Virus record (IMG/VR): IMGVR_UViG_3300020045_015756 | Coordinates: 1 to 44,641 of that record | Reading direction: 5' to 3' (one strand) | Length of the DNA: 44,641 nt | From: a virus | Lineage: Duplodnaviria > Caudoviricetes | Part shown: positions 1 to 44,641 of the stretch, piece after piece | Position numbering within the stretch: the stretch's first letter is position 1 | Layout: every line of letters starts with the position of its first letter | The notes under the pieces: generated by a model | The model's input: only the letters and a program-made list of their open reading frames with translations | The model's database searches: none | What the model was told of the DNA's origin: nothing | Position numbers and translations under genes: made by a program

Positions 1-202
1 AACAAAAAGACGATGCTGGGCAGACATCAACATCATTAATACCGTCTATAGAAATTGTAATTAGAACAGTGGAGTTATTCACCATTTTGCAAATATAGGA
101 GGGATTGGCTAAAGGAGTTCCTAGGGCTTGATATGACCCGGTAAATGTTGTTGAATCAATACTTCTTAGGGTTTCCCATGCTAGCCGTTGTGTGTAGCTC
201 AT
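1..202 (-). CDS. Small virion structural protein, N-terminal part (runs off window); allele of 38932-39264
   Basis: ATG at 202 with GGAG SD; reads MSYTQRLAWETLRSIDSTTFTGSYQALGTP..., nearly identical to the 110-aa ORF. Confidence 0.85.
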   Translation of the reverse strand, partial: MSYTQRLAWETLRSIDSTTFTGSYQALGTPLANPSYICKMVNNSTVLITISIDGINDVDVCPASSFC

Positions 203-210
203 TTTACTCC

Positions 211-423
211 CTATTCTTCATTTATGATCATTATTTCTTCTTCCTCTACCTCTTCCTCTTTTCCTTTCTTCTCTTCAGCTTCTCTGACTTGATCTTCAAT
301 CATTCCAATATGTTTTTGATATTGGAATATGATCTCCTTAGCGGTTACTAATGTAGTGTCGGAAGGAAAGTAAACGTGAGCTGTTTTTCCATCTACTGTT
401 GCCTCAAGTCTGGTAAAGTTCAT
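211..423 (-). CDS. Small acidic hypothetical protein (possible fibre chaperone), present only in allele A
   Basis: AGGAG SD; 70 aa with a Glu-rich tail; lies directly downstream of the fibre gene. Confidence 0.7.
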   Translation of the reverse strand: MNFTRLEATVDGKTAHVYFPSDTTLVTAKEIIFQYQKHIGMIEDQVREAEEKKGKEEEVEEEEIMIINEE

Positions 424-485
424 GTATCATCTCCTTTGTAAAGGTTAAGTTTTTTATTACCATAAGGAGGTGTTTTATTCTACCA

Positions 486-3329
486 CTAATTCATTACCCA
501 TCCAATTACTGTGATGTTCGATGTTGTAGTAGTGGCACCAGTTCCGTTGGTAAATGTTAATGTACATGAACCAGCAGCATTTACAACACTCTTTAGGGAC
601 ACAGCAGATCCTGTTGTTGTCCCAAACCATGTCAACATGATATCTGTTGATGCACCTGTGATTGTTGAGTTTTGTATTACAAGGGCCTGGTCAGCTGCTG
701 CTGCTATTGAAACACCACTGAATGCAACCTTGAAGTGTCTGTTGTTACATACTTGCGGACTTGCTGCCGCAGCAACATCTGTAGGAGTAACTTTGATACC
801 CCCAACATTTGAAAGAACATCTGGCACTGTCACTGCACTTGATGTAAAGGACGATGCTGTTCCAGTTCCGGAGGCTGTTGTTACAGTTAATCCTGTAGCA
901 GCACCAGAAGCAAGTGTTAATGTTGTAGGACCATTAACGGCAACTGTTGTTGTAACCTGACCAATTGTTACTGCGTGAGCGGCAGCTCCTGTGGCAATAT
1001 TGACAGCACCGGCACGTGTAGCGCCTGTTGCAAGTAAGTTAAATGTCTGTGTACCAGCTGTTGCGGCACCGTTCATGATATTTAGAGTTGTGCTAGCACC
1101 AGGTGTTGTACCATTAAGGATATTAACGATGTTTGCACCAGCATTTGATGTGCCTGAAAGAATCTGTACTGTTTGACCTGTTGCGTTAGTAGCAGCACCA
1201 ATTGTGATTGTTCCTGTTCCTGCAGTACCACCAAGTGTTATAGTACCTGATGTCAATGCATTACCAATTGTCACAGAACCAGTTGTTTGTGTGTTACCAA
1301 TAGTAATTACGTTAGCTGCAGTACCGCCAATAGCAATTGTTTTAACGCCGGTACCACCAGTACCGATATTAACTGCCATTGCGTTTGTTCCTGTTGCCAG
1401 ATTAAATACTTGAGTACCACCAGAAGCGTTACCAGAGAACATGTTGATTGTTTGTGTACCAGCAGAAGGGGCACCACCAAGAATTGTTACAGTATCATCT
1501 TGAGCAGAGTTACCGCCAGCGATTGTAATTACACGAGCGGCATCTGGGGCGACATTACCCATACCTATTGTGGTTACCCTGGCGTTGTTACCTAATGCCA
1601 AGACACCAGCACCAGAAGAGCCTGCTCCTGAAAGGATATTAACTGTAGAGTTAGCAGCAGATGCACCGTTAGCAATGTTAACAGTCTGAGCAGTGCTGTT
1701 AATTCCGTTAGCCATATTTACAGTTAAGCTACCAGCGATTGTGTTACCTAGGTTAAGAACCTGTGTACCACCTGTAGCTGTTCCTGAAAGGACGCTTACT
1801 GTTTGTGTACCAGCAGAAGGAGCACCGTTAAGAACGTTAACGGTATCATCTTGTGCTGAGTTACCACCGTTGATTGTTGTTATCCTAGCAGCAGCTGGAG
1901 CTACGTTACCGATACCAATAGTGGTTACACGCGTATTGCTACCAAGAGCTAATACACCAGCTCCTGTTGTACCTGTTCCGGAAAGGATATTAACTGTTGA
2001 GTTAGCACCCGAGTTTCCGTTAGCTATTGAAACCGTCTGAGCTGTTGTGTTTATGCCGTTACCGATCGTTATCTGGTTACCATCTACACCGTTACCTATA
2101 CCGATAGTTTTTGCTCCACCAAGATTTGCTATGGCTATTGTCTGGGCTGCTGTAGAAGCGGAAATGGTAATGGTACCTGTCTGTGCACCTGTACCGCCGA
2201 TAGAAATTGTACCACTTGTCATACCAGCACCGATAGAGACAGAGCCGGCTGTTTGAACATCAGCAATTGTTAGTGTTGTGGCACCAGAACCGTTTGCTAT
2301 TTTCATTGCATTTGATCCAGAAGATGATCCTAAAACCATATCTCCTGTTTGTGCTGTACCCCCGATAGTTATCGATCCTGAAGTTGTAGCAGCGCCTACT
2401 GTGTAAGTAGAAGTCGCTGCGCCATTCAGGGCAAAGTTACCAGTACCAACTAACAATGAGATACCGGATGTTGATGAAACGCTACCGATAGTAACAACGT
2501 TAGAAACTGCCCCTGTACCAATGTTAACTGCTTTCGCTGAGCCAGCGCCTCCGGCAATATTAACAGTGGTAGCTCCTGTTCCAGCTCCTATAGCTACAAT
2601 ATTTGTGCCAGAAGAAGAACCGATAGTCATTGTACCAGTTTGTGCTGTACCACCAATTGTCATAGTTCCTGTTGTAGTGGATGCGCCAATTGCATAAGTA
2701 GATGTAGCGGCACCATCAAGAGAGAAATTTCCTGTACCAACAAGGAGAGAAATTCCAGCTGCTCCACCTGTGTTACCAATTGTAGTAACAATACCGCTTC
2801 CATTACCGATAGTTGTTGTGTTATTTGATGTCAAAGTTGTGAAAGCACCAGCTGCCGGTGTTGTTCCACCTGTTGCTGGAGGAGCCGCAAACACAGCTGC
2901 TAGGTTGCTTGGCTGCACCGCTAACGCTGTAACGCCAGGAACTGTTGCAGTGCCGGCTACAGCTTGAGCATCTGTTGACAAGTTAGTGATACCGGTAACA
3001 CCAGTCTGAGCGATATTAGCGCCGGCTAGAACCAGTGATTGTCCATAGTCGTAAACAGCCTTTGCGTAAGGAACTAATGTTGTTGAAGTAGAATCTGTAA
3101 CAACATTAGAAGACAGTTGCACGATACCCGCAGTTGTGGTAGTAGCGTAAGCATTACCCCCAGCTTGCCAGGTGGATCCGTTGAAGATGTACTCTGTAGG
3201 AGGGGAGGTGGAAGTATCGAAATACTGCTGTCCTAATTGTCCAAGGAATGAGCTAGGAGGTGCACCAACACCTGTTACTGCTCCCTGGGGTACACTTATT
3301 AAACCACCTATTCCATATGCTACGGGCAT
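486..3329 (-). CDS. Tail fibre / adhesin, beta-solenoid-like, allele A (947 aa)
   Basis: G/T/A/N/S-rich with 97-aa and 117-aa internal duplications; AGGAG SD; N-terminus shared with 39277-41868; located in the tail module. Confidence 0.8.
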   Translation of the reverse strand: MPVAYGIGGLISVPQGAVTGVGAPPSSFLGQLGQQYFDTSTSPPTEYIFNGSTWQAGGNAYATTTTAGIVQLSSNVVTDSTSTTLVPYAKAVYDYGQSLVLAGANIAQTGVTGITNLSTDAQAVAGTATVPGVTALAVQPSNLAAVFAAPPATGGTTPAAGAFTTLTSNNTTTIGNGSGIVTTIGNTGGAAGISLLVGTGNFSLDGAATSTYAIGASTTTGTMTIGGTAQTGTMTIGSSSGTNIVAIGAGTGATTVNIAGGAGSAKAVNIGTGAVSNVVTIGSVSSTSGISLLVGTGNFALNGAATSTYTVGAATTSGSITIGGTAQTGDMVLGSSSGSNAMKIANGSGATTLTIADVQTAGSVSIGAGMTSGTISIGGTGAQTGTITISASTAAQTIAIANLGGAKTIGIGNGVDGNQITIGNGINTTAQTVSIANGNSGANSTVNILSGTGTTGAGVLALGSNTRVTTIGIGNVAPAAARITTINGGNSAQDDTVNVLNGAPSAGTQTVSVLSGTATGGTQVLNLGNTIAGSLTVNMANGINSTAQTVNIANGASAANSTVNILSGAGSSGAGVLALGNNARVTTIGMGNVAPDAARVITIAGGNSAQDDTVTILGGAPSAGTQTINMFSGNASGGTQVFNLATGTNAMAVNIGTGGTGVKTIAIGGTAANVITIGNTQTTGSVTIGNALTSGTITLGGTAGTGTITIGAATNATGQTVQILSGTSNAGANIVNILNGTTPGASTTLNIMNGAATAGTQTFNLLATGATRAGAVNIATGAAAHAVTIGQVTTTVAVNGPTTLTLASGAATGLTVTTASGTGTASSFTSSAVTVPDVLSNVGGIKVTPTDVAAAASPQVCNNRHFKVAFSGVSIAAAADQALVIQNSTITGASTDIMLTWFGTTTGSAVSLKSVVNAAGSCTLTFTNGTGATTTTSNITVIGWVMN

Positions 3330-3415
3330 GACTGACTCCTTTATTAGCCTTAAAAATTTTATAATGCATCAAATAGGTCTAATAGTCAAACAAATAATTT
3401 AACGATTCACAGCTA

Positions 3416-3443
3416 TTGACAAAAAATCACATGGCGATATAAC
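3416..3443 (+). promoter_or_regulatory. Sigma70-type promoter for the HTH/micropeptide operon
   Basis: TTGACA-16 nt-TATAAC, conserved at 41955-41982. Confidence 0.65.
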
Positions 3444-3470
3444 ATAAATAACAAACAATGAGTGGTTTAT

Positions 3471-3722
3471 ATGATGAAGAAAAGTTTACGGTTTTTTACA
3501 CCCAAAGAGCTAGCTAGCATGTTGAATGTGCATCCTAATACGATTTACAATAGTATTAAGTCTGGAAGGATTCACGCATGTAGAATTGGGGGAGGGAAGA
3601 AAGGCTCTTATAGAATATATGAAAATGATATAGAAAGGCTTATTGAGAACGACTCAAGGGAGATAATCGAGAAAATAATACAAAATAGAGTAGAAGAAGA
3701 ACTTAAAAAAAGAGGAGGATAG
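3471..3722 (+). CDS. Excisionase/MerR-like helix-turn-helix DNA-binding protein (HTH_17 type)
   Basis: FFTPKELASMLNVHPNTIYNSIKSGRIHACRIGG...YRI pattern; an identical protein is at 42010-42261. Start is ATG 3471 or 3474. Confidence 0.85.
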   Translation: MMKKSLRFFTPKELASMLNVHPNTIYNSIKSGRIHACRIGGGKKGSYRIYENDIERLIENDSREIIEKIIQNRVEEELKKRGG

Positions 3723-3723
3723 G

Positions 3724-3801
3724 ATGAATGTAGTTTTAGGGTTTATTGCCATGTTCATGGCTATTAGTGGTGTTTACTGGAGCGTTCCACATGGAAAATA
3801 A
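3724..3801 (+). CDS. 25-aa hydrophobic micropeptide (not in ORF track)
   Basis: MNVVLGFIAMFMAISGVYWSVPHGK; GGAGG SD inside the HTH 3' end; conserved at 42796-42873. Confidence 0.6.
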   Translation: MNVVLGFIAMFMAISGVYWSVPHGK

Positions 3802-3961
3802 AACAAAGAGAATAGATTGGGAGAAGATATCGGTTTATTTCACTGCATTAGCTATATTGATAACCATTATGGTATTCTTAAATCAATTCCAGAGAGACAT
3901 TATGGATATTGTAGAGAGAATAGCGGTTTTAGAAACAAAAATAGAGGCACACATAAAATGA
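3791..3961 (+). CDS. Small single-TM coiled-coil protein
   Basis: MENKTK..., one TM segment then heptads (DIVERIAVLETK); GGAG SD; allele at 42863-43036. Confidence 0.7.
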   Translation: MENKTKRIDWEKISVYFTALAILITIMVFLNQFQRDIMDIVERIAVLETKIEAHIK

Positions 3962-4026
3962 TTGAATTTGTGTGCATGTTTGTTCTTTGCTTTGGAATTA
4001 AGGTAATACTAGCAGTTATAGATTAA
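3958..4026 (+). CDS. 22-aa hydrophobic micropeptide
   Basis: MIEFVCMFVLCFGIKVILAVID; ATGA overlap with the upstream gene; its stop overlaps the convergent ejection gene stop. Confidence 0.5.
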   Translation: MIEFVCMFVLCFGIKVILAVID

Positions 4027-5516
4027 CGCTCACTATTAGATGCTTCCTCAGTAAGAAAGTCCCAGTCTTCTTTCGGATGGGATTTTTCCATATATTTCTT
4101 TACTTGATTAGCAAGATTTTTTATTCCCTGAATAGAAGATTGGTTGGCGTTTACTACCATTTTCTTCGATATATTCTGCAAATAAGGACTCAAAAGCATT
4201 TCCCTTGCAAGCAGTCGAGAGGCCGCTTCTGTGGCCACAGCTTTTAATGGAAGAGGATTGCCGGTTAGAAAAGCCCACCCTGCCATCGGAAGCCCTATCG
4301 CTTCCGCTTTATTTATGAAAGAATCCACTATTCCTGGTTTAAGCTTCTTATTAATCTGAGAATATTTTGAGTAGAGCTTATTTGTGAGCTCGAAATCTTT
4401 AGCTAATTCAGGAGATGTCTTATGTAGAGCATCTAAAACCGGTTTTTTCAATTCAGCAAGGGCCTTTTTTCCCCCACTAATGCTATTCCAGTTTACAGAC
4501 CTATTGATGTCTTGCCAAAAATTAATCAAGTACTCGGGAGTCACTGATTTATTATTTATCGAATCGATTGCCTCTTCAATAAACCCAAGAGCTGCCTTTC
4601 GATCTGGTGACGAGGCTAGTGTTTTGGATAGTTTGTCTTGGATATCAACAAATTCGTCATATAGTTTTGTTCTTCTATCCCCACCAATAATCTTCTGTGC
4701 TTGTGGGCTGTTCTTAATAGATGTATACGAATCTCCAAGCGTGTCTTTTATTTCTGAGAAGACCCTTTTTGTCTTACTGCCCTTTCTAGCCAATTTAGAC
4801 AATATTGATGACTTAACTTCCCCCTGTATAAGAGGGGTTATTTGTGATTCGGTTAAACCTATCTTCCTTCCCGCCTCTACGATATCTTTAGCCTTTTTTC
4901 CTGGAAGTAATCGTTTAGAAACGGCCGCCTGTCCAATGGGGGCCACTATTTCCGTCAATGCTGCCAATTCCTCTGGGGCTCCTGCTTCCCTAAGTCCTTG
5001 TCCAGCTAAACCTGCGCCAAGAGAAGTTAACAACGTTTTAGCGCCACCACCACCAAAAGCTGCTGTTTCTCCTAGAAACTCTGCTCCCCGACCCGCTATT
5101 CTACCTGCTGGAGTTTTCCCCTCTCCTATTCCAGTCAGCTCCTTAATGCCTCTTTTTACCTGACTAGAGGAAGGGAATCTGGATCCTAAAGGAATAGGTT
5201 CATCTAGTTCAGAAATTAAAAGCATCTCACCATAAGATGGAGTTTCACCTCTATTTAATTTATCTATTATCTGAGAGCGGACATCTTGCATTTGCTTTTG
5301 TTCAGAAGTAATAGCACCCTCTGGAGACTGGGCATGTAATAAATCAAGAATATCTCCATATGCTCCTCCAGCCCCCGCAATCCCCTTAGAAAGGGATTGT
5401 TCGGCAACATCCCTAGAGACAGAAGGTGACTTTGGCTTCAGCCTCAAAGAAGAAGGCGCTGACGATGATTGCTTTTCTGGTTTAGATTTCAAGCGTAGAG
5501 AAGATGGAAAAGTCAT
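4023..5516 (-). CDS. Putative DNA ejection / internal virion protein, allele A (497 aa)
   Basis: Last of three helical G/A-rich ORFs after the nozzle gene, the position of podovirus ejection proteins; hydrophobic Gly-rich segments. Confidence 0.65.
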   Translation of the reverse strand: MTFPSSLRLKSKPEKQSSSAPSSLRLKPKSPSVSRDVAEQSLSKGIAGAGGAYGDILDLLHAQSPEGAITSEQKQMQDVRSQIIDKLNRGETPSYGEMLLISELDEPIPLGSRFPSSSQVKRGIKELTGIGEGKTPAGRIAGRGAEFLGETAAFGGGGAKTLLTSLGAGLAGQGLREAGAPEELAALTEIVAPIGQAAVSKRLLPGKKAKDIVEAGRKIGLTESQITPLIQGEVKSSILSKLARKGSKTKRVFSEIKDTLGDSYTSIKNSPQAQKIIGGDRRTKLYDEFVDIQDKLSKTLASSPDRKAALGFIEEAIDSINNKSVTPEYLINFWQDINRSVNWNSISGGKKALAELKKPVLDALHKTSPELAKDFELTNKLYSKYSQINKKLKPGIVDSFINKAEAIGLPMAGWAFLTGNPLPLKAVATEAASRLLAREMLLSPYLQNISKKMVVNANQSSIQGIKNLANQVKKYMEKSHPKEDWDFLTEEASNSER

Positions 5517-22941: not shown

Positions 22942-23595
22942 CTATATTATATTTATATCGTTTTCATATACCCTATTGTACAGAACCATCATTTCCTGAA
23001 CGGCCCTTCTGTCTACTGGCTTAGATTCAATGATAGACTTGCCCTCTGTTGCTGTGTTGCTGAATACCTTGCGGTTAGCTATACAGATGTCCACAACACC
23101 AAAAAAACCCTCTTCATTAAGAATGCCAAGAGCGCCCTCGTTATCTTTTCCTATTGCATCCGCCTGATTTAAGAATATACAGTATTTGAGAGAGGGATTG
23201 ATTGCCATTGTCTCGTGGATAAGTGACCTAACCTTGCCAAGAGTCCATACGTCATAGGCCCTTGGCTTAAACGGCACAAGGAACATGTTGGCAATAGACA
23301 GCGCACTACGCTGGGATGTGGTGTCTCGTCCACCAGCATCAATGATGACGTCGTCATAGTGTGAGACTAGTTTTAAAACCTGTGAATTAAGGGATACCCC
23401 GGATAACTGTACCGTGGTCCATGTAGATGGGATCTTTAGGCTTTCTCGCTGCTCAGCCCAATCGGAGGCGCTCCTCTGTTCGTCGGCATCAACTAGCAAG
23501 ACTTTCTTACCAGTTGATGCTCGCATAACCGTTAGGTTGGTTGCGATGGTCGTCTTGCCAGAACCGCCCTTGATGCCGCCTACTACTATAATCAT
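22942..23595 (-). CDS. parA: Plasmid-type partition ATPase ParA (short type Ib)
   Basis: Deviant Walker A KGGSGKTT, LLVDADEQ, VIIDAGG; 217 aa with no N-terminal HTH. Confidence 0.92.
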   Translation of the reverse strand: MIIVVGGIKGGSGKTTIATNLTVMRASTGKKVLLVDADEQRSASDWAEQRESLKIPSTWTTVQLSGVSLNSQVLKLVSHYDDVIIDAGGRDTTSQRSALSIANMFLVPFKPRAYDVWTLGKVRSLIHETMAINPSLKYCIFLNQADAIGKDNEGALGILNEEGFFGVVDICIANRKVFSNTATEGKSIIESKPVDRRAVQEMMVLYNRVYENDINII

Positions 23596-32212: not shown

Positions 32213-33298
32213 CTACTGTTTGATAATTCTTCTGAATCCTCTCTGTTTCATAGCATCTTGGATGATTTTTTCAAAACATTCGTTGTCATATTGTATTTCT
32301 ATCGTTTTTCCCATTCCTGTTTTTGGTTCTATGGATACATGTTTGTTTAGGACATGGATTTCATAGTTTTCGGAAGCCAGGTGTTTTTGCATGTTCTGTA
32401 CTGTTTGCTTATTGATATCTGCTTTGCTCTCCTTTTCCTGAGGAGTTTTTGGTCTATCTTTTGGGTTTTGAGCAAGAAACCACTTTATTGCCTGTATAAC
32501 GGTTTTTTTTATGTGGGTGGTAGGGTGAGTTGCCCAGGCTATAGATAGCTCAATAGCGGGCAAATTATGATGCTCTAACAGCCATTCCTTTTCACTAATG
32601 GGGATGTCTAATGACTCAAGCGCTTCGCTTCTCTTTGTTTTCTCAACAACGAGAGCTGATGGCTTGGCAATGACTTTCTTGGTTGCTGTTTTCTTTTCTT
32701 CGCCAGAAGAAGCAGCAGCAGTCACAGCTTTTGGGGACGAAGAGTTTTTTTCCACTGATTCTATTGCTGCTGTTTTTGTTTTAGCATCTGTTTTAGTATC
32801 TTTACATATAAGATAGTCCACTTTTTGACGTGGAGAGTCCATTTTTGGATTTGGAGAGTCCATTTTTGGACTTTCGAAAGTTGTTTTTGGATTCTCCTCT
32901 GTAGACTCTTCTCTCTGTTGGAATGTCCGATTATGGACATTTATAAACATTTTTTCATCGACTAATGCATACCACATAGTCTTAATTTGCTTATTTTTAT
33001 TGTGGTTTTTGGCGATCAGAAGTTTAGAGTCGATAAGACTTTTAAGGATTCGCATCACTTGTCTTCTGTCCCAATAAGGGAAATGGTGAGCCATTTCTTC
33101 TTGCGTTTGATACATCCAAGTTCTTCCCTCGATGAAGTTAGAGCCTTTTCTCATATTGAAGTCTATCCAGTATATAATGTGTTTTATTATGATAGCTTCT
33201 TGTATTCCGTAGGCTGTGGCAAATTCAGTATCGAAATAGTGGCAGGGCCCGAAAAAGTGTTGCGCGTTATTGTGTGTATTGGTATTCTGGGATTGCAT
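32213..33298 (-). CDS. Phage replication initiator with N-terminal winged HTH
   Basis: A..YG..EAII...I.YW, GRTW.Y...E....FPYW, T.WY pattern; internal iterons; GAGGAG SD before ATG 33298. Confidence 0.8.
   Translation of the reverse strand: MQSQNTNTHNNAQHFFGPCHYFDTEFATAYGIQEAIIIKHIIYWIDFNMRKGSNFIEGRTWMYQTQEEMAHHFPYWDRRQVMRILKSLIDSKLLIAKNHNKNKQIKTMWYALVDEKMFINVHNRTFQQREESTEENPKTTFESPKMDSPNPKMDSPRQKVDYLICKDTKTDAKTKTAAIESVEKNSSSPKAVTAAASSGEEKKTATKKVIAKPSALVVEKTKRSEALESLDIPISEKEWLLEHHNLPAIELSIAWATHPTTHIKKTVIQAIKWFLAQNPKDRPKTPQEKESKADINKQTVQNMQKHLASENYEIHVLNKHVSIEPKTGMGKTIEIQYDNECFEKIIQDAMKQRGFRRIIKQ
32815..32870. repeat. Three 21-bp-spaced iterons (putative origin)
   Basis: AGTCCACTTTTTGA, AGTCCATTTTTGGA and AGTCCATTTTTGGA at 32815, 32836 and 32857. 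Confidence 0.7.
33260..33288 (+). promoter_or_regulatory. Antisense promoter inside the rep 5' end
   Basis: TTGCGC-17 nt-TATTCT with an extended TG. Confidence 0.55.
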
Positions 33299-33455
33299 AT
33301 GGAAAACTCCTCTGCGTATGTGGGTTAGTCGAGACAGTGAGGGGAGCCTGCAAAAACCCACCTCGCTGTCTCTGGTACCTCTGTTGTACGTGGAATGGTA
33401 ATATAAAATCAAGTGTCTAGATGGGGAACCCGTAAAAAGGTTCCCCTTCCTTTTT
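33295..33455 (+). ncRNA. Candidate antisense RNA to the rep leader
   Basis: Bounded by a + strand promoter and a + strand terminator; 12-bp stem 33331-33372. Confidence 0.5.
33423..33455 (+). terminator. Intrinsic terminator on the + strand
   Basis: GGGGAACC-CGTAAAAA-GGTTCCCC-TTCCTTTTT. Confidence 0.7.
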
Positions 33456-33563
33456 CTATATCAATTAAAATAGCTGTGAATGTATAAACTGATTCGAAGG
33501 GAGTCATGCCCCCGTCTTCATTGTGTTCTAAAATTACGCATTTTTGGAAAGGGGTAGTGACTT

Positions 33564-33791
33564 CTACCCCTTTTCTTTTTGCTCGTAGGCTTCTTTAAGC
33601 ATCTTGACTATATCGATCTTACCTTCTGAGTGTTTGTCTAGCTCGTAGAGAAAGTGGGCGCTGGGGAGTTGCTTCTTTTTCAGTACTCTTGAAAAATAGC
33701 CAGTAGAAAACCCAAGTTTTTTTGCAAACTTAGTGTCAGAAAATTCTTTACTTTTCTTCTTTTCATAAAATAGGTATTCGTCTAAATCCAA
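33564..33791 (-). CDS. Cro/XRE-like HTH regulator
   Basis: GGGAG SD with TTG start; FAKKLGFSTGYFSRVL...PS. Confidence 0.75.
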   Translation of the reverse strand: MDLDEYLFYEKKKSKEFSDTKFAKKLGFSTGYFSRVLKKKQLPSAHFLYELDKHSEGKIDIVKMLKEAYEQKEKG

Positions 33792-33815
33792 GGTATGCTC
33801 CCTATGTACAGGGGT

Positions 33816-33844
33816 ATGATAACACGATGGATAAAATAGATCAA
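33816..33844 (-). promoter_or_regulatory. Leftward promoter (cro-rep)
   Basis: TTGATC-17 nt-TATCAT with an extended TG. Confidence 0.65.
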
Positions 33845-33867
33845 TCGTTTCCTTTTTGTGTTTGTGT

Positions 33868-33896
33868 TTGACTAAATAGGAAACAAATGATAAGAT
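33868..33896 (+). promoter_or_regulatory. Rightward promoter (recombination operon)
   Basis: TTGACT-17 nt-TAAGAT with an extended TG. Confidence 0.7.
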
Positions 33897-33950
33897 TACT
33901 AACGTTCGTGTGAACAAATGAGAAAAAACCAAACAAAAAGGAAAAAAATC

Positions 33951-34742
33951 ATGAGCTTTTTACCAGATAATTACCAAGCACCAAGAAGCAGTAACTATTA
34001 CATGAAGTTAGTAGAGGGAGAAAACAGAATCCGTATTATGTCTCGTCCGGTTCTCGGGTGGGAAGATTGGAAAGATAACAAGCCTGTTAGATTTACAATG
34101 GATAAGAAGCCAGCAAAGCCTTTCGATCCAAAGAAGCCAGTTAAACACTTCTGGGCTTTCGTTGTATTCAACCAAAACGAAGAACAGATACAAATCCTGC
34201 ATGTGACGCAGGCGTCAATTCGTAAGAGTATAGAGGCTTTGTGCAAGGACACTGACTGGGGTGACCCATATGCATATGATCTTAAGATTATGAAGACGGG
34301 AGAGGGTGTTGATACTGAATATGCAGTAAATCCTGTACCGCACAAACCTGTTGATCAATTCCTCATCACATGCTTTGACGAAAGGCCTTGTTACCTTGAA
34401 GCGTTGTTTGATAACGGGGATCCTTTTTCTCAAGAGTGGGGACCAGATAAGAGGACTCCTAGAGCTACCGGGTCTTCTGATTCAAAGGTGGTGAGTATAA
34501 AAGAGGAGAAGTCTTTCACATCTGCAGAGGCTTCTAAATTCGTTAATAAGAAGACCATAACTGAAAAAGAGGCTGCCGAGTTGGTGGCTGTGTTGAGTAA
34601 GTGTTCCGAGGAATATGTTCTTAGCGTTCATGATTTCATGAAGAAGCATGGGATTGCTCAGTACGGGGATCTGACAAGAGAAGTATATGATCGTATATTA
34701 GCTAAGGGTATAGAAGAAAAAAATAAACAGGAAAGGAAGTAG
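33951..34742 (+). CDS. Putative ssDNA-binding/annealing protein
   Basis: MSFLP...YMKL.EGENRIRI...WGDP..YD.KI...G.G..TEY; paired with YqaJ; AAGGA SD. Confidence 0.65.
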   Translation: MSFLPDNYQAPRSSNYYMKLVEGENRIRIMSRPVLGWEDWKDNKPVRFTMDKKPAKPFDPKKPVKHFWAFVVFNQNEEQIQILHVTQASIRKSIEALCKDTDWGDPYAYDLKIMKTGEGVDTEYAVNPVPHKPVDQFLITCFDERPCYLEALFDNGDPFSQEWGPDKRTPRATGSSDSKVVSIKEEKSFTSAEASKFVNKKTITEKEAAELVAVLSKCSEEYVLSVHDFMKKHGIAQYGDLTREVYDRILAKGIEEKNKQERK

Positions 34743-38931: not shown

Positions 38932-39264
38932 TTACTCCTGAATGATATATTGAGTAACTAAATACACACTGCCAGTTCCAGCGCTGCCTTTAACCATTAT
39001 TTGTGTGCCTGCTGGAAGAGCGGGAGCACCAGCATTTAATCCTGCTTTTCCCTCATCATATAACCAAAAAGACGATGCTGGGCAGACATCAACATCATTA
39101 ATACCGTCTATAGAAATTGTAATTAGAACAGTGGAGTTATTCACCATTTTGCAAATATAGGAGGGATTGGCTAAAGGAGTTCCAAGTGCTTGATAAGAAC
39201 CCGTGAAGGTTGCTGAATCAATACTTCTTAGAGTTTCCCAAGCAAGTCTTTGTGTATAGGACAT
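38932..39264 (-). CDS. Small virion structural protein (110 aa)
   Basis: GGAGG SD; a second allele is at the window start. Confidence 0.8.
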   Translation of the reverse strand: MSYTQRLAWETLRSIDSATFTGSYQALGTPLANPSYICKMVNNSTVLITISIDGINDVDVCPASSFWLYDEGKAGLNAGAPALPAGTQIMVKGSAGTGSVYLVTQYIIQE

Positions 39265-39276
39265 TAATTCCCTCCA

Positions 39277-41868
39277 TTAAGCTGTGAGTACCCAGAAATT
39301 AACAGCAACGTTACCGTTAAGAGCTGCGGCGCCGTTATTTTGACATGTAACAGTTAAGGAACCGGCAGCTCTTGTCACGCGTGTTACTGTCATTTGTGCA
39401 TCGTTAGCGCCTTCATTGCATACTGTTACAAGGACGCATGATGATGTAGTTACAATACTGTTTGTGATCACAAATGCCTGAGAGGCGGCCGCTGCTGTCG
39501 TAAACCCTGTGAATGTTGCTCTACCAACGTTAGCGTTAATCTCAGCAGTTGCCGACGGGCTTGCTTCCGTGTCTGTGGCAGCAACCACAGTTGCAAAACC
39601 AGCAGAACTGATGTCTACTGATCCACCACCTGTTGTAAGGTCAATACCGCCAGCTGCATTAGATGCTGTTAATACGATTGCATTAGCAACGGCTTCTGTT
39701 GCTGTAATGTTAACAGAGCCACCCGTGTTGATGATGTCAATGTCTAGACCCGCACCTGCACCAGGAGCTAAGATATCAATCCCCCCCGCTGAACTGGATA
39801 GTACGATAGAGTCTGCTATTGCTTCTGTAGCTACTACAACAACAGAACCACCCGTGTTTGTAATATTGATATCTTCTGTAGCTGCACCGACGGCATCAAT
39901 GTCTATACCGCCTGCTGAAGCTACGATACGAACAGCGTCAACAGCATTCTGTGAAGAGGCAATATTAACTTGTAAAGCACCATCGATATCGACACCACCA
40001 GCTGCGGCAGTAAGATTAATAGCGTCAGCTGTCGCAAGACCTCCAGAGATTGTAACCCCCCCAGCTGTGGAACTAATGCCGATAGATGCTGCTCCTGTAC
40101 CCTGAGAGGCGGTCAGCGTTAGAGTTTCTGATGTGCCACCGTTTGTGGTGAGAGATATAGCACCTGCTGTGTCTTCATCAGAGTTAACCTTAACAGAACC
40201 ACCTGAAGATGAAAGTGTTAGATCTATACCAGCGCCTGTAACAGTGACGTTAGAGGCAGCAGCGCCATCAATAGAGAATGCGCCTGTTGTGTCTATTGCA
40301 ATACCAGCTGTACCAGCATCTACGTCTATACCACCACCAGCATCATCGGCCTGAATTCTCACCGCGTCTGCAGCAGCTTCACCACCAGTTAACACAAGTC
40401 TTCCTGCTGAGCTATCCAGTGTTAAGTCGATTCCTGCACCAGAAACGGCTACATTGGAAGCAGCGGCTCCATCAATAGAGAAAGCACCGGTTGTATCTAC
40501 TGCAATACCTGCTGTGCCAGCATCGATATCGATACCACCACCAGCATTAGATGTTACTAAATTGATAGCATCAGCTGTTGCAAGACCAGCTGTTAGAGTA
40601 ATACCGCCCACGTCTGAAAGAACATCGATAGAAGTGACACTTGTACCTTGGTCTGCTCTTAAACGAATTGTTTCTGATGTACCACCATTAGCGTGTAGAT
40701 AAACAGCTAAAGCAGCATCCTCTGTTGATTCAATGTTAACTGATGACCCTGTAGCTATGATATCAATATCTTCCCCAGCTGCTGCACCAGACGCTAGGAT
40801 GTCAATACCTCCTGCACTAGACGTAATGACGATAGAATCGGCTGCGTTTTGTGAAGAAGCAATATTAACCTGACCCGCTGCATCAACATCAACACCACCT
40901 GATGAGTCTATATTAATAGCATCTGCTACCGCTTCACCGGCATTAAGAACGATAGAACCTGCTGTGTTTACAATATCAATATCTTCTGTTGCAGCACCAG
41001 CCGCCGTGATATCGATACCGCCAGCTGTACTTGTGATGGTGATAGAATCAGCTGCGTTTTCTGTTGCACTAATATTTACACTAGATCCGGTTGCAACGAT
41101 ATCAATGTCCTCACCAGCAGATGCGCCAGACGCTAGAATGTCGATACCTCCTAATGTAGCTTCTAATAAGATAGCTTGAGCGTTATTTCTTGTTGATGTG
41201 ATGCTTGCAAGTAAAGCTACATCAACATCAAGACCACCCGATGTAGCGTTAAGGTCGATTGCGTCTGATGCAGCTTCTCCGGCATTTACTACCAAGCTAC
41301 CAGCTGTAGAAGCTAGTGTCAGGTCTATAGCACCTGTGAGTGTAATGTTAGAAGCCGATGTCGCACCAAGACTTACTGTGCCGCCACTTGTTGTTAAAGA
41401 GGTGAAGGAAGCGGCTGCTGGTGTTGTTCCTCCAATGACAGGGGGTGTAGCAAGCAGGCTTGCAGTCTTTGACGGAGACATCCCAACTGTATCATCTACA
41501 GCGGCTTGTGCCTCAGCAACTGTTGCTCTTCTGAGGATACCTTTTGTTACTTCAGACCAGTCTGGAGCGCCAGCGATAGCAACTAAGGCAACCTTTGCAG
41601 GTGTCATGATAGTTGTATCATCTGTTCCGGCAGTTGCCTCAGCAGCAGTCGCAATTTCAGCTATACCAGCAACAGTTTCAGTAGCCTGTACGTTACCCCC
41701 CTGCGCCCAAGTAGTTCCATTAAACACATACTGAGCAGGTGGACTTTGAGAGGTATCAAAATACATTTGTCCCAACTGACCAATAAAGGTAGAGGGTGGT
41801 GCTCCTACACCCGTTAGTGCGCCTTGAGGTACGTTGATTAAACCACCTATTCCATATGCTACTGGCAT
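39277..41868 (-). CDS. Tail fibre / adhesin, allele B (863 aa, acidic GGIDI repeats)
   Basis: Same N-terminus as allele A; 68-aa and 113-aa duplications. Confidence 0.8.
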   Translation of the reverse strand: MPVAYGIGGLINVPQGALTGVGAPPSTFIGQLGQMYFDTSQSPPAQYVFNGTTWAQGGNVQATETVAGIAEIATAAEATAGTDDTTIMTPAKVALVAIAGAPDWSEVTKGILRRATVAEAQAAVDDTVGMSPSKTASLLATPPVIGGTTPAAASFTSLTTSGGTVSLGATSASNITLTGAIDLTLASTAGSLVVNAGEAASDAIDLNATSGGLDVDVALLASITSTRNNAQAILLEATLGGIDILASGASAGEDIDIVATGSSVNISATENAADSITITSTAGGIDITAAGAATEDIDIVNTAGSIVLNAGEAVADAINIDSSGGVDVDAAGQVNIASSQNAADSIVITSSAGGIDILASGAAAGEDIDIIATGSSVNIESTEDAALAVYLHANGGTSETIRLRADQGTSVTSIDVLSDVGGITLTAGLATADAINLVTSNAGGGIDIDAGTAGIAVDTTGAFSIDGAAASNVAVSGAGIDLTLDSSAGRLVLTGGEAAADAVRIQADDAGGGIDVDAGTAGIAIDTTGAFSIDGAAASNVTVTGAGIDLTLSSSGGSVKVNSDEDTAGAISLTTNGGTSETLTLTASQGTGAASIGISSTAGGVTISGGLATADAINLTAAAGGVDIDGALQVNIASSQNAVDAVRIVASAGGIDIDAVGAATEDINITNTGGSVVVVATEAIADSIVLSSSAGGIDILAPGAGAGLDIDIINTGGSVNITATEAVANAIVLTASNAAGGIDLTTGGGSVDISSAGFATVVAATDTEASPSATAEINANVGRATFTGFTTAAAASQAFVITNSIVTTSSCVLVTVCNEGANDAQMTVTRVTRAAGSLTVTCQNNGAAALNGNVAVNFWVLTA

Positions 41869-41954
41869 GGCCGACTCCTTTATTAGCCTTAAAAATTTTA
41901 CAATGCATCAAATAGGCCTAATAGTCAAACAAATAATTTAACGATTCACAGCTG

Positions 41955-41982
41955 TTGACAAAAAATCACACGGTGATATAAC
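41955..41982 (+). promoter_or_regulatory. Sigma70-type promoter (copy B)
   Basis: TTGACA-16 nt-TATAAC with TG. Confidence 0.65.
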
Positions 41983-42009
41983 ATAAATATCAAACAATGA
42001 GTGGTTTAT

Positions 42010-42261
42010 ATGATGAAGAAAAGTTTACGGTTTTTTACACCCAAAGAGCTAGCTAGCATGTTGAATGTGCATCCTAATACGATTTACAATAGTATTAAGT
42101 CTGGAAGGATTCACGCATGTAGAATTGGGGGAGGTAAGAAAGGCTCTTATAGAATATATGAAAATGATATAGAAAGGCTTATTGAGAACGACTCAAGGGA
42201 GATAATCGAGAAAATAATACAAAATAGAGTAGAAGAAGAACTAAAGAAGAGAGGGGGATAG
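42010..42261 (+). CDS. Excisionase/MerR-like HTH protein (copy B)
   Basis: Identical protein to 3471-3722. Confidence 0.85.
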   Translation: MMKKSLRFFTPKELASMLNVHPNTIYNSIKSGRIHACRIGGGKKGSYRIYENDIERLIENDSREIIEKIIQNRVEEELKKRGG

Positions 42262-42262
42262 G

Positions 42263-42541
42263 ATGGAACAAATAATTATAGATTATCTCAAATCTATGGA
42301 TATAGCACAGTTATTGGCTACGGGACTAATGTTCTGGTTTTTTTATAGGCGTTTAAATTCAAAGATAGACCGTTCAAATGGTAAGATAGACGGATTAAAT
42401 ACTAAATTAGAAACGGGATTTAAAGAATTGGGTGAAAAGATCCATACCATCGACATCAGACTGTCAAGGATTGAAGGAATCTTGCACGCCCAAGATTGCT
42501 GTGCAATTAAAGCGTCTAATGACATAAGAAAGGCGGAATAA
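42263..42541 (+). CDS. Single-TM coiled-coil protein (92 aa)
   Basis: TM segment, KID repeats, IDIRLSRIEG. Confidence 0.75.
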   Translation: MEQIIIDYLKSMDIAQLLATGLMFWFFYRRLNSKIDRSNGKIDGLNTKLETGFKELGEKIHTIDIRLSRIEGILHAQDCCAIKASNDIRKAE

Positions 42542-42542
42542 A

Positions 42543-42728
42543 ATGGAAAAACAAAGTTTTTTAAAGAATCATGCCGATACGTTGGCTATAATGGGACTCA
42601 ATTTGGCGATAGCTGCTATACTCATTGGTATGTGGACAGCTAATACAGCAAGAATTGATGCAGCTAACGCTAGAACAGATCAGTTATATCAGACACTAAT
42701 TGATATTGTTAATCAGGGAAGAAAGTAG
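42543..42728 (+). CDS. Single-TM coiled-coil protein (61 aa)
   Basis: Paralogue of 43038-43289. Confidence 0.75.
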   Translation: MEKQSFLKNHADTLAIMGLNLAIAAILIGMWTANTARIDAANARTDQLYQTLIDIVNQGRK

Positions 42729-42795
42729 GTGGGGACATTCATTAAAATAATACAAAATAGAGTAGAAGAAGAACTAAAAAAAAGAGGAGAATAGG

Positions 42796-42873
42796 ATGAA
42801 TGTAGTTTTAGGGTTTATTGCCATGTTCATGGCTATTAGTGGTGTTTACTGGAGCATTCCCCATGGAAAATAA
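42796..42873 (+). CDS. 25-aa hydrophobic micropeptide (copy B)
   Basis: MNVVLGFIAMFMAISGVYWSIPHGK. Confidence 0.6.
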   Translation: MNVVLGFIAMFMAISGVYWSIPHGK

Positions 42874-43036
42874 AATAAAAAGAATAGATTGGGAGAAGAT
42901 ATCAGTTTATTTCACTGCATTAGCTATATTGATAACCATTATGGTATTCTTAAATCAATTCCAGAGAGACATTATGGATATTGTAGAGAGAATAGCGGTT
43001 TTAGAAACAAAAACGGAAGAAAGGAATGGGAAATAA
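42863..43036 (+). CDS. Single-TM coiled-coil protein (allele of 3791-3961)
   Basis: Near-identical except for the C-terminus. Confidence 0.7.
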   Translation: MENKIKRIDWEKISVYFTALAILITIMVFLNQFQRDIMDIVERIAVLETKTEERNGK

Positions 43037-43037
43037 A

Positions 43038-43289
43038 ATGGAAAAACAAAGTTTTTTAAAGAATCATGCTGACACAATGGCCATTATGGGACTTAATTTA
43101 GCAATAGCCGCTATACTTATTAGCATGTGGACAGCCAATACATCTAGGGTAGATGCATGTAATGCTAGAATAGATGCAACAAATCTTGCTTGGGAACAAG
43201 AGAGAATTGCTTTTTATCAAGCATGGAAAGAAGAAAGCAAAGACTTTCATGGGCGTTTATGTGCTATAGAAGAAGGGAGAAAGAAATAA
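43038..43289 (+). CDS. Single-TM coiled-coil protein with DFHGRLCAIEE tail
   Basis: N-terminal half resembles 42543-42728; C-terminal tail resembles 22517-22717. Confidence 0.75.
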   Translation: MEKQSFLKNHADTMAIMGLNLAIAAILISMWTANTSRVDACNARIDATNLAWEQERIAFYQAWKEESKDFHGRLCAIEEGRKK

Positions 43290-43290
43290 A

Positions 43291-43368
43291 ATGAGTTTTA
43301 TTATTGCATTTGGATGGACATTTATTGTAGCGGCACCCCTGATGATTATAGCTGCGTGGCTAGACTAA
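43291..43368 (+). CDS. 25-aa hydrophobic micropeptide
   Basis: MSFIIAFGWTFIVAAPLMIIAAWLD; its stop overlaps the convergent ejection gene stop. Confidence 0.5.
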   Translation: MSFIIAFGWTFIVAAPLMIIAAWLD

Positions 43369-44641
43369 CCCTCTGAAAACTTATTTTCAGTTAAGAATCC
43401 CCACTTTTCCTTAGGGTGTTTTTTTTCCATATGAGTCTGCATGTTTTTGGCAAGTTCTTCTATCCCCTTTACAGAGCTTTGATTAAAGTTAACAACTAGT
43501 TTCTTGGCGATGTTTTGGAGGTATGGACTGATCAACATTTCCCTTGCTAATAGGCGCATCGACATGTCTGTGGCAACTCCTGTAAGAAAGTAAGGGTTTC
43601 CCATAGCAAGAGCAGCTGCACCAGCCGGAAGGCCAAGTATCTCTGCTTTGTTTAAGAAAGAATCTACTGTGGTTGTATTAAGTTTTTTTGAGATCTGAGC
43701 ATATTTGCTATATAATTTATTGCTATCCTCAAAATCTTTAGCTAATCTAGGTGATTCTTTTTCTAAAACATCCATGATCGGTTTCTTTAAAGAAGCAAGA
43801 GCCTTTTTTCCACCACCAATACTATTCCAGTTTACAGAACGATTAATGTCCTGCCAAAAGTTTATAAGGTATTCTGGAGTTACTTCTTTGTTATTCAAAG
43901 AATCTAAAGCCTCTTCAACGAAGCTTAACGCAGCTTTTCTGTCAGGTGAAGATGATAAAGTTTTAGATAATTCTTCTTGTATATTTAAAAAATTATCACT
44001 GAGAGACAGTCTATTTTGGCTAGAAATCATCTTTTTAGCCTCTTCGGAACCCTTGATCTTATTATATGAATCACCTATGTTTTCTTTTATTTCAGATAAA
44101 ACACGTTCCGTTCTTGAGCCTTTTTTTGCAACCTTAGATAAAATTGCAGATTTATTTTTCCCTTGAATCAGAGGAGTAATCTGAGATTCAGAAAGACCTA
44201 TTTTTCTTCCTGACTCGATAATATCCTTAGTAGATTTACCGGGAACAAGGCGCCTGGAAATAGCGGCTTGCCCTAAAGGCAAAGCTATTTCAGCTGCTGA
44301 TGCTAACAATTCTGGGGCATTTGCTTCTCTTAAGCCTTGTCCTAATAAACCGGCTCCAGTGGCAGTCGCCAATGACTTTACCCCGCCTCCCCCAAAAGCT
44401 GCTGTTTCTCCTAGAAACTCTGCTCCCCGACCCGCTATTCTACCTGCCGGAGTTTTTCCCTCTCCTATTCCAGTCAGCTCCTTAATCCCTCTTTTTACCT
44501 GACTAGAGGAAGGTAATCTAGATCCTAAAGGAATAGGTTCATCTAGTTCAGAAATTAAAAGCATCTCACCATAAGATGGAGTTTCACCTCTATTTAATTT
44601 ATCTATTATCTGAGAGCGGACATCTTGCATTTGCTTTTGTT
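43365..44641 (-). CDS. Putative DNA ejection protein, allele B (5' end outside window)
   Basis: Near-identical to 4023-5516 up to FGGGG, diverged thereafter. Confidence 0.7.
   Translation of the reverse strand, partial: QKQMQDVRSQIIDKLNRGETPSYGEMLLISELDEPIPLGSRLPSSSQVKRGIKELTGIGEGKTPAGRIAGRGAEFLGETAAFGGGGVKSLATATGAGLLGQGLREANAPELLASAAEIALPLGQAAISRRLVPGKSTKDIIESGRKIGLSESQITPLIQGKNKSAILSKVAKKGSRTERVLSEIKENIGDSYNKIKGSEEAKKMISSQNRLSLSDNFLNIQEELSKTLSSSPDRKAALSFVEEALDSLNNKEVTPEYLINFWQDINRSVNWNSIGGGKKALASLKKPIMDVLEKESPRLAKDFEDSNKLYSKYAQISKKLNTTTVDSFLNKAEILGLPAGAAALAMGNPYFLTGVATDMSMRLLAREMLISPYLQNIAKKLVVNFNQSSVKGIEELAKNMQTHMEKKHPKEKWGFLTENKFSEG

Follow-up and report, generated by a model that had tools for sequence, protein, structure and literature searches.

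A conserved cassette for a predicted antisense RNA at the 5′ end of a phage replication-initiator gene

The rep locus and its surroundings

The window considered here is a virus record of 44,641 nt (IMG/VR IMGVR_UViG_3300020045_015756; Caudoviricetes), in which genes for a P22-like portal, terminase, capsid, ParA, a cro-like helix-turn-helix (HTH) protein and a replication initiator (rep) are followed by an endonuclease block. Its closest terminase matches in deposited phage and plasmid collections share about 35% identity. Gene motifs had prompted the guess of a chlamydial host, which was set aside; sequence searches identified no host.

The rep gene (32213..33298, minus strand) encodes a 361-aa protein that matches PHROG 11233, replication initiation protein (E 3e-23), and O-like families. 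Its start codon, ATG at 33298-96, is fixed by a Shine-Dalgarno (SD) sequence, AGGAG (33307..33311, minus strand), lying 8 nt before it, and by seven homologues that align from MQSQ. Within rep are three 21-bp direct repeats (32812..32874), candidate iterons which, by analogy with lambda O, are likely to belong to an internal origin. The rep of one relative introduced below, L044, also contains a triple repeat, with 22-bp spacing, and none was found when it was looked for in the rep of the other, L002.

Upstream of rep lies the cro-like HTH gene (33564..33791, minus strand), with weak PHROG HTH/repressor matches and 71% identity to its L002 counterpart. It appears to start at a TTG, judging from its SD and from L044, and probably shares one transcript with rep. 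The likely source of the rep mRNA, as far as its sequence tells, is a promoter-like site ahead of the cro-like gene, TTGATC-17-TG-TATCAT (33816..33844, minus strand).

The window ends share diverged blocks (3211-3726/41750-42265, 92%; 4303-5302/43642-44641, 75%; 3-197/39065-39259, 93%), so arranged that 3-5302 repeats against 39065-44641 with a period of about 38.5 kb, and smaller internal repeats occur at 42211-43175. The pattern looks like the outcome of two alleles of one tail-gene region, of a duplication or of a strain-chimeric assembly. An excisionase-like HTH gene is present in two copies (3462-3722 and 42001-42261) with identical PHROG scores, even though an integrase was not found. 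The orphan ParA gene is at 22942-23595; in fragments from relatives its positions and strands differ.

An opposed promoter motif in the first rep codons

On the plus strand, facing rep, is the promoter motif TTGCGC-17-TGnTATTCT (33260..33288), composed of a -35 element TTGCGC (33260-65), a 17-nt spacer, TG (33280-81) and a -10 element TATTCT (33283-88). A sequence-only reading of this DNA had picked out all of these parts correctly but had placed them between the two genes, when they actually lie inside the rep coding sequence, over codons 4-13. Both the -10 and the -35 fall below the threshold of a generic promoter scanner, so that the support for this promoter is its conservation.

Leader DNA was obtained for two relatives, L002 and L044, the latter from the best 80 of 251 terminase relatives, which with the window makes three leaders. 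Both relatives keep the promoter motif, a central hairpin, a pre-SD element and two terminators in the antisense direction, with unrelated stem sequences. The form TTGnGn-17-TGnTATTCT occurs in all three leaders over the same codons with exact spacing, the spacer sequence varying; its -35 reads TTGCGC in L002 and TTGTGA in L044. Other routes to further leaders gave little. With Rep as query, a single-protein viral scan and a genome scan returned no homologue; among metagenome matches, L003 and L005 came without a leader and L004 duplicates L002. Pattern scans for the leader recovered only L002 and L044 as true members (one of eight and two of 17 matches), and a looser pattern run over 50 related records gave four matches: L142 is L044, L140 does not fall at the start of a gene, and L141 and L143, assessed on the matched letters alone, were taken to be chance. 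Queries with the endonuclease, the SSB-like protein and the cro-like protein yielded no further leader.

The motif leaves a footprint in the protein. Among 154 proteins screened, all eight close Reps and P0135 satisfy all six constraints that the promoter imposes on the codons beneath it; an M-x-x-Q-[N/D] start is present in 13 of the 154, nine of which fit six constraints, two five and two only two. Rep residues 6, 7 and 12 each take three amino acids, all within the promoter-permitted sets, whose background frequencies are 0.05-0.41. The motif is thus conserved in the 5′ coding region of rep, and its promoter activity is predicted.

Close relatives of Rep are few (seven and eight proteins in two protein searches). 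The L002 protein aligns with that of the window only in the C-terminal half, and the L044 protein aligns with neither. Since pairwise comparison of these three Reps found no significant alignment of their N-terminal domains, codons 1-13 appear to travel with the regulatory module. The close Reps point the same way: in five of the eight, the same first 13 residues lead into a different N-terminal domain, which makes those codons part of that module. In the loci L043-L122, the slot after the cro-like gene houses many unrelated initiator families in phages whose terminases are 63-87% identical, and resembles a hotspot for swapping.

Could the motif be a chance promoter-like sequence, standing beside terminators that merely stop stray antisense transcription, with no regulation involved? 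Promoter-like matches are common in this A+T-rich DNA (20 against 14.6 expected in 7 kb), and a similar motif with an upstream hairpin turned up in one of 15 unrelated pattern matches (L127). Against this stand its exact conservation within a coding sequence that is otherwise non-alignable, the codon footprint, and the covariation and cassette enrichment described below, and the explanation seems very improbable. In L127, an unrelated high-G+C phage, the same promoter-in-first-codons motif (MQPQNS...Q) is found at 1440-1540, with a G+C hairpin just upstream, and precedes a 125-aa gene without a PHROG match.

A second promoter-like motif, TTG..-17/18-TA(C/A)AAC (33383..33412, minus strand), was noted by eye in all three leaders as a candidate only. 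Its final -10 base (ACTTG...TA(C/A)AAC) is C, and the stretch folds into a hairpin in two of the three leaders; it could serve either as a weak sense promoter opposing the antisense promoter or as a hairpin element of the RNA.

The predicted antisense RNA and its central hairpin

From the promoter spacing and the terminator, the antisense RNA would extend from 33295 to 33456 (plus strand). Its predicted length is 162 nt in the window, 169 nt in L002 and 171 nt in L044. With the promoter in codons 4-13, the predicted RNA begins in codon 2 and covers the AUG and SD: its +1 falls 4 nt inside the rep coding sequence in all three leaders, and its first ~35 nt are complementary to the rep AUG, SD and pre-SD element. 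The proposal of a ~160-nt RNA directed against the rep SD and leader is supported by conservation and covariation, the RNA itself being a prediction. Its 5′ end is predicted to be folded in part, and strongly in L002.

The terminator that had been proposed for this RNA, here called T1 (33423..33456, plus strand; stem 33423-46), is present, and occurs at the same position in L002 and L044 with an unrelated stem sequence; its U-tract is interrupted. A second terminator in the same direction, T2 (33546..33580, plus strand), had been overlooked. In the window it spans the cro-like stop codon, and it is present in all three leaders. T1 ends about 110 nt short of that stop codon, and only read-through to T2 would reach the cro-like gene.

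Between the pre-SD element and T1 is the central hairpin (33331..33372), with a 12-bp stem (33331-42/33361-72), which can form in both the antisense RNA and the mRNA. It had been argued that this stem pairs fully only on the antisense strand, where U-G replaces C-A; the base difference holds, and the predicted stabilities on the two strands are alike (-22.5 vs -22.6 kcal/mol). The predicted plus-strand RNA folds better than shuffles (z -3.8, 1/200 as good), as does the mRNA strand (z -3.6, 0/200), so that with equally stable hairpins the U-G asymmetry alone does not mark the antisense strand. The predicted shapes differ, with an open 13-nt loop in the antisense RNA and a G-U-rich upper stem closed by a 4-nt loop in the mRNA. 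In each leader one G-U pair falls in the lower stem on the antisense strand, and on the mRNA strand G-U pairs fall in the upper stem, a placement that in these folding models may give an open antisense loop facing a narrower target loop. The hairpin is likely to be the recognition element. A YUNR-type motif, the U-turn consensus, is seen at the apex of the mRNA hairpin in the window (33349-33354, minus strand) and at about 1050 in L002; it is unclear in L044 and too short to be given weight.

Examination of the homologous leaders reveals that the hairpin co-varies. In a MAFFT alignment of the three, 34 of 36 stem cells are paired and eight of the 12 pairs have changed on both sides; this paired share of 94% compares with 76% in column shuffles (0/500 reach it) and 31-54% in slid controls, and any of the covariation measures is reached by 0-2 of 500 column shuffles, figures that, with three leaders, small counts, a structure derived from those same leaders and related sequences that can beat shuffles, constitute support and not proof. 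A search of Rfam at 32800-34000 gave no match near threshold, and none of nine loci totalling 127 kb reached the gathering score. ATG frames for a small peptide on the antisense strand were seen by eye in all three leaders, have no common sequence, and were rejected.

The start codon is AUG in all three leaders, each of which has a weak SD/AUG hairpin (-5.4 to -7.4 kcal/mol). The pre-SD element, UAAC(C/A)C(A/U)C (33320..33327, minus strand), contains AACCCAC and is placed 19-21 nt before the AUG in all three. It pairs with the SD/AUG in L002 (-7.4 kcal/mol) and L044 (-6.1), the only leaders in which the SD hairpin is built from it, and is predicted to be unpaired in the window.

The proposed pseudoknot

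The sequence-only reading had offered an IncI/IncB-like switch, in which GUGGGUU (33355..33361, minus strand), at the top of the mRNA stem, would pair with AACCCAC (33320-26), the pseudoknot so formed making the SD accessible unless the antisense RNA prevented it. The two heptamers are indeed complementary, and in the window their match exceeds chance mildly, with a longest Watson-Crick run of 7 nt from hairpin to pre-SD element, reached by 43/1000 shuffles (14/1000 for the apical part), and a pre-SD duplex of -11.3 kcal/mol, matched by 10/500. The pre-SD element is moreover conserved, and in L002 and L044, but not in the window, it supplies the anti-SD strand of a weak hairpin, an arrangement also known from IncI.

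The match does not carry over to the homologues. The longest run is 5 nt in L002 (822/1000 shuffles) and 4 nt in L044 (1000/1000), with duplex energies matched by 75/500 and 218/500 shuffles, respectively. In a fourth relative, P0006, the called gene is extended by 47 codons ahead of the shared start, presumably through the leader, and in these TAACCC is encodable at -23 and GTGGGTT nowhere; recovery of the hairpin from this peptide was not significant (179/200 shuffles reach the score), and P0006 serves here only to show that GUGGGUU is absent.

Structure and geometry argue the same way. Six of the seven GUGGGUU nucleotides are predicted to be paired in the upper stem of the mRNA (P unpaired 0.14 or less); as a nested fold the 7-bp helix is less favourable than the hairpin by 8 kcal/mol, and 7.2 kcal/mol would be needed to open the upper stem. 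Since AACCCAC is predicted to be unpaired in the window, there is no hairpin for it to open. It stands only 4 nt from the base of the 12-bp stem, a geometry unlike that of IncI, and on the other strand the two helices would abut directly, so that the fold would probably be sterically strained.

According to PMC4705826, IncI control (ColIb-P9 repZ) depends on a loop carrying GGCG, on CGCC as its distant partner, on a leader peptide, and on a weak GUG start that is masked; Inc is located about 100 bp upstream of the repZ start. The window resembles IncI/IncB in having an antisense RNA over a leader hairpin, and two homologues have a weak SD-masking hairpin, but the loop motif, its partner and the leader peptide are not conserved in the three leaders, where rep has an AUG start, in the window with a good SD, and the predicted RNA overlaps the rep start in all three, unlike the upstream Inc. 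The sequence-only reading had itself seen no clear leader peptide, rightly, as no upstream frame is common to the three leaders; the window has one 28-codon TTG frame without an SD, and no counterpart to it was found in L002 or L044. Taken together, these results weigh heavily against an IncI/IncB-type pseudoknot, which is judged improbable.

Proposed mode of action

The reading preferred here, held at a probability of roughly 0.6, is that the promoter inside rep makes an RNA that meets the rep mRNA at the central hairpin, zips over the SD and AUG, and blocks initiation of translation. The promoter in codons 4-13 would drive a ~160-nt antisense RNA ending at T1. First contact would be made between hairpin loops, open on the antisense strand and narrow on the mRNA, from which pairing would zip down across the SD and AUG. 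The resulting duplex would keep ribosomes from loading and may be a substrate for RNase III. With an RNA level that scales with genome number, the outcome would be negative feedback on replication. Direct shut-off of initiator translation is predicted because the 5′ end of the RNA is complementary to the start codon and SD; neither a pseudoknot nor a leader peptide would be needed.

Distribution across the phage family

The wider occurrence of the cassette was assessed by a scan that required an opposed promoter between -130 and +20 relative to a gene start and a terminator 40-200 nt further on. The set comprised 33 initiator loci, three near-duplicates having been dropped beforehand, of which three were excluded as too near a contig end; as controls served 233 other genes with an upstream gap from the same loci. 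A cassette scoring 9 or more was found at 18/30 initiator genes vs 4/233 control genes, for which P 2e-16 is an overstatement, given that examples had been viewed before the thresholds were chosen, that the loci are related to one another and that start codons were assigned automatically. With the three discovery leaders left out, the count is 15/27. This enrichment is the further point against chance announced above.

In 14 of the 18 cassettes the RNA would end short of the SD. The predicted access to the SD on antisense binding fell by more than 0.2 in three of the 18 and rose by 0.1 or more in three. With most of the predicted RNAs missing the SD and predicted refolding inconsistent, the family-wide cassette may work in another way than that of the window.

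An alternative explanation for the window cassette is indirect refolding of the pSK41 RNAI, repABC ctRNA or pT181 type, in which binding at the central hairpin drives the leader into an SD-masking or terminating fold; PMC3155836 describes the repABC ctRNA as acting through refolding. Masking of the SD by antisense binding is predicted in the distant relatives L097, L064 and L054, and the weak SD/AUG hairpins of all three leaders would suit it. In the window, however, the RNA is complementary to the SD itself, and on the mRNA strand none of the leader hairpins has a U-tract, which would leave attenuation without a terminator. This explanation is accordingly thought unlikely, if marginally less so than the pseudoknot.

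Shorter upstream cassettes with long inverted repeats were noticed in L097 (3300-3443), L085 (5750-5870) and L071 (2880-2997). By eye these repeats are possible anti-anti-SD/anti-SD switches of pSK41-like character, an impression that folding supports for L097 and not for L085; the L071 -10 ends in C, and the cassette scan missed this locus.

No tyrosine integrase was detected in any of 28 near-complete genomes (control 14/14), a resolvase occurs in one of the 28, and ParA in three, the window included. Such a gene content is compatible with both a plasmid-like and a purely lytic life.

Comparison with known systems

Among described systems, pMV158 has RNAII, whose promoter lies within the 5′ end of repB and which, in the accounts of PMC5703833 and PMC4485353, is proposed to obstruct the binding of ribosomes. 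As in the window, the antisense promoter of pMV158/pLS1 RNAII (copG-repB) lies in the 5′ coding end of the initiator gene and a small repressor gene stands upstream. RNAII differs in being a 48-nt RNA with one hairpin, from a rolling-circle plasmid, that pairs just upstream of an atypical RBS, whereas the window RNA would be ~160 nt long with several hairpins, would cover the SD and AUG, and would belong to a tailed phage with an O-like initiator. P22 Sar and IS10 RNA-OUT, each about 70 nt, differ in their targets, an antirepressor and a transposase and not an initiator. PMC7968456 describes both as cis-encoded antisense RNAs that block the ribosome binding site of the overlapping gene. By analogy, the cassette would work most like pMV158 RNAII, and also like P22 Sar and IS10 RNA-OUT, while sitting in the position of lambda pO/OOP; judged by sequence, it is a member of none of the compared systems.

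The RNA of the P1 lytic replicon (kilA-repL) is made within kilA and works via the upstream gene. The window is without such an upstream gene and has its promoter in rep. What the two would share is an antisense RNA that regulates the replication initiator of a phage, with the origin inside the gene; for P1 such control is already in print (Heinrich et al. 1995, as cited in PMC9948254).

Lambda deserves closer attention. Its pO/OOP unit, as described in PMC3985674, shares several features with the window: a promoter opposing the initiator gene from its 5′ end, origin repeats inside that gene, a short transcript with its own terminator, and a location downstream of a cro-side promoter. The same paper states that OOP RNA exerts no control of O, and that lambda replication is affected by pO activity, which acts in cis, and not by the RNA. 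The window promoter could likewise act in cis, its opposed transcription damping read-through from the cro side and tuning the origin in rep, with the RNA a by-product or acting on the cro-like message and the hairpin serving the mRNA. The overlap of T2 with the cro-like stop codon and the many family cassettes that end before the SD fit such an arrangement. OOP, however, targets the cII mRNA by overlapping the cII 3′ end, and the window RNA has no gene beneath it and a co-varying internal hairpin. In the subgroup of the window, L002 and L044 it would cover the initiator SD and AUG, unlike OOP; its length (162-171 nt) and hairpin are conserved, and T1 would stop it about 110 nt before the cro-like gene. 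A role of this kind is considered rather unlikely, although the most credible of the alternatives to blocked initiation.

No published description of the cassette was found in the literature searched, which was thin on subscription and older papers; the inc RNA of N15 was not found there either. Antisense RNAs that restrain initiators are an established principle, and what the cassette adds is a further family and a different layout, the mechanism not being new.

Conclusions

Comparison of the sequences shows a promoter motif, a hairpin that co-varies and a pair of terminators, all kept in front of different initiator domains. The antisense cassette is judged real, conserved and uncatalogued, with a predicted RNA and an unsupported pseudoknot. 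The N-terminus of Rep, MQxQN...Q, would be conserved because the opposite strand encodes a promoter, and would mark a recombination boundary for initiator swapping. More tentatively, and with greater doubt than attaches to blocked initiation, the leader and first 13 codons may form a portable control cassette onto which unrelated initiator domains are swapped, within a family-wide antisense brake that would enable plasmid-like prophages at a set copy number, the RNA taking over the role of the lambdoid integrase and repressor. For a large phage family that has no cultured relative and is mostly free of integrase, the cassette offers a concrete and testable form of replication control.
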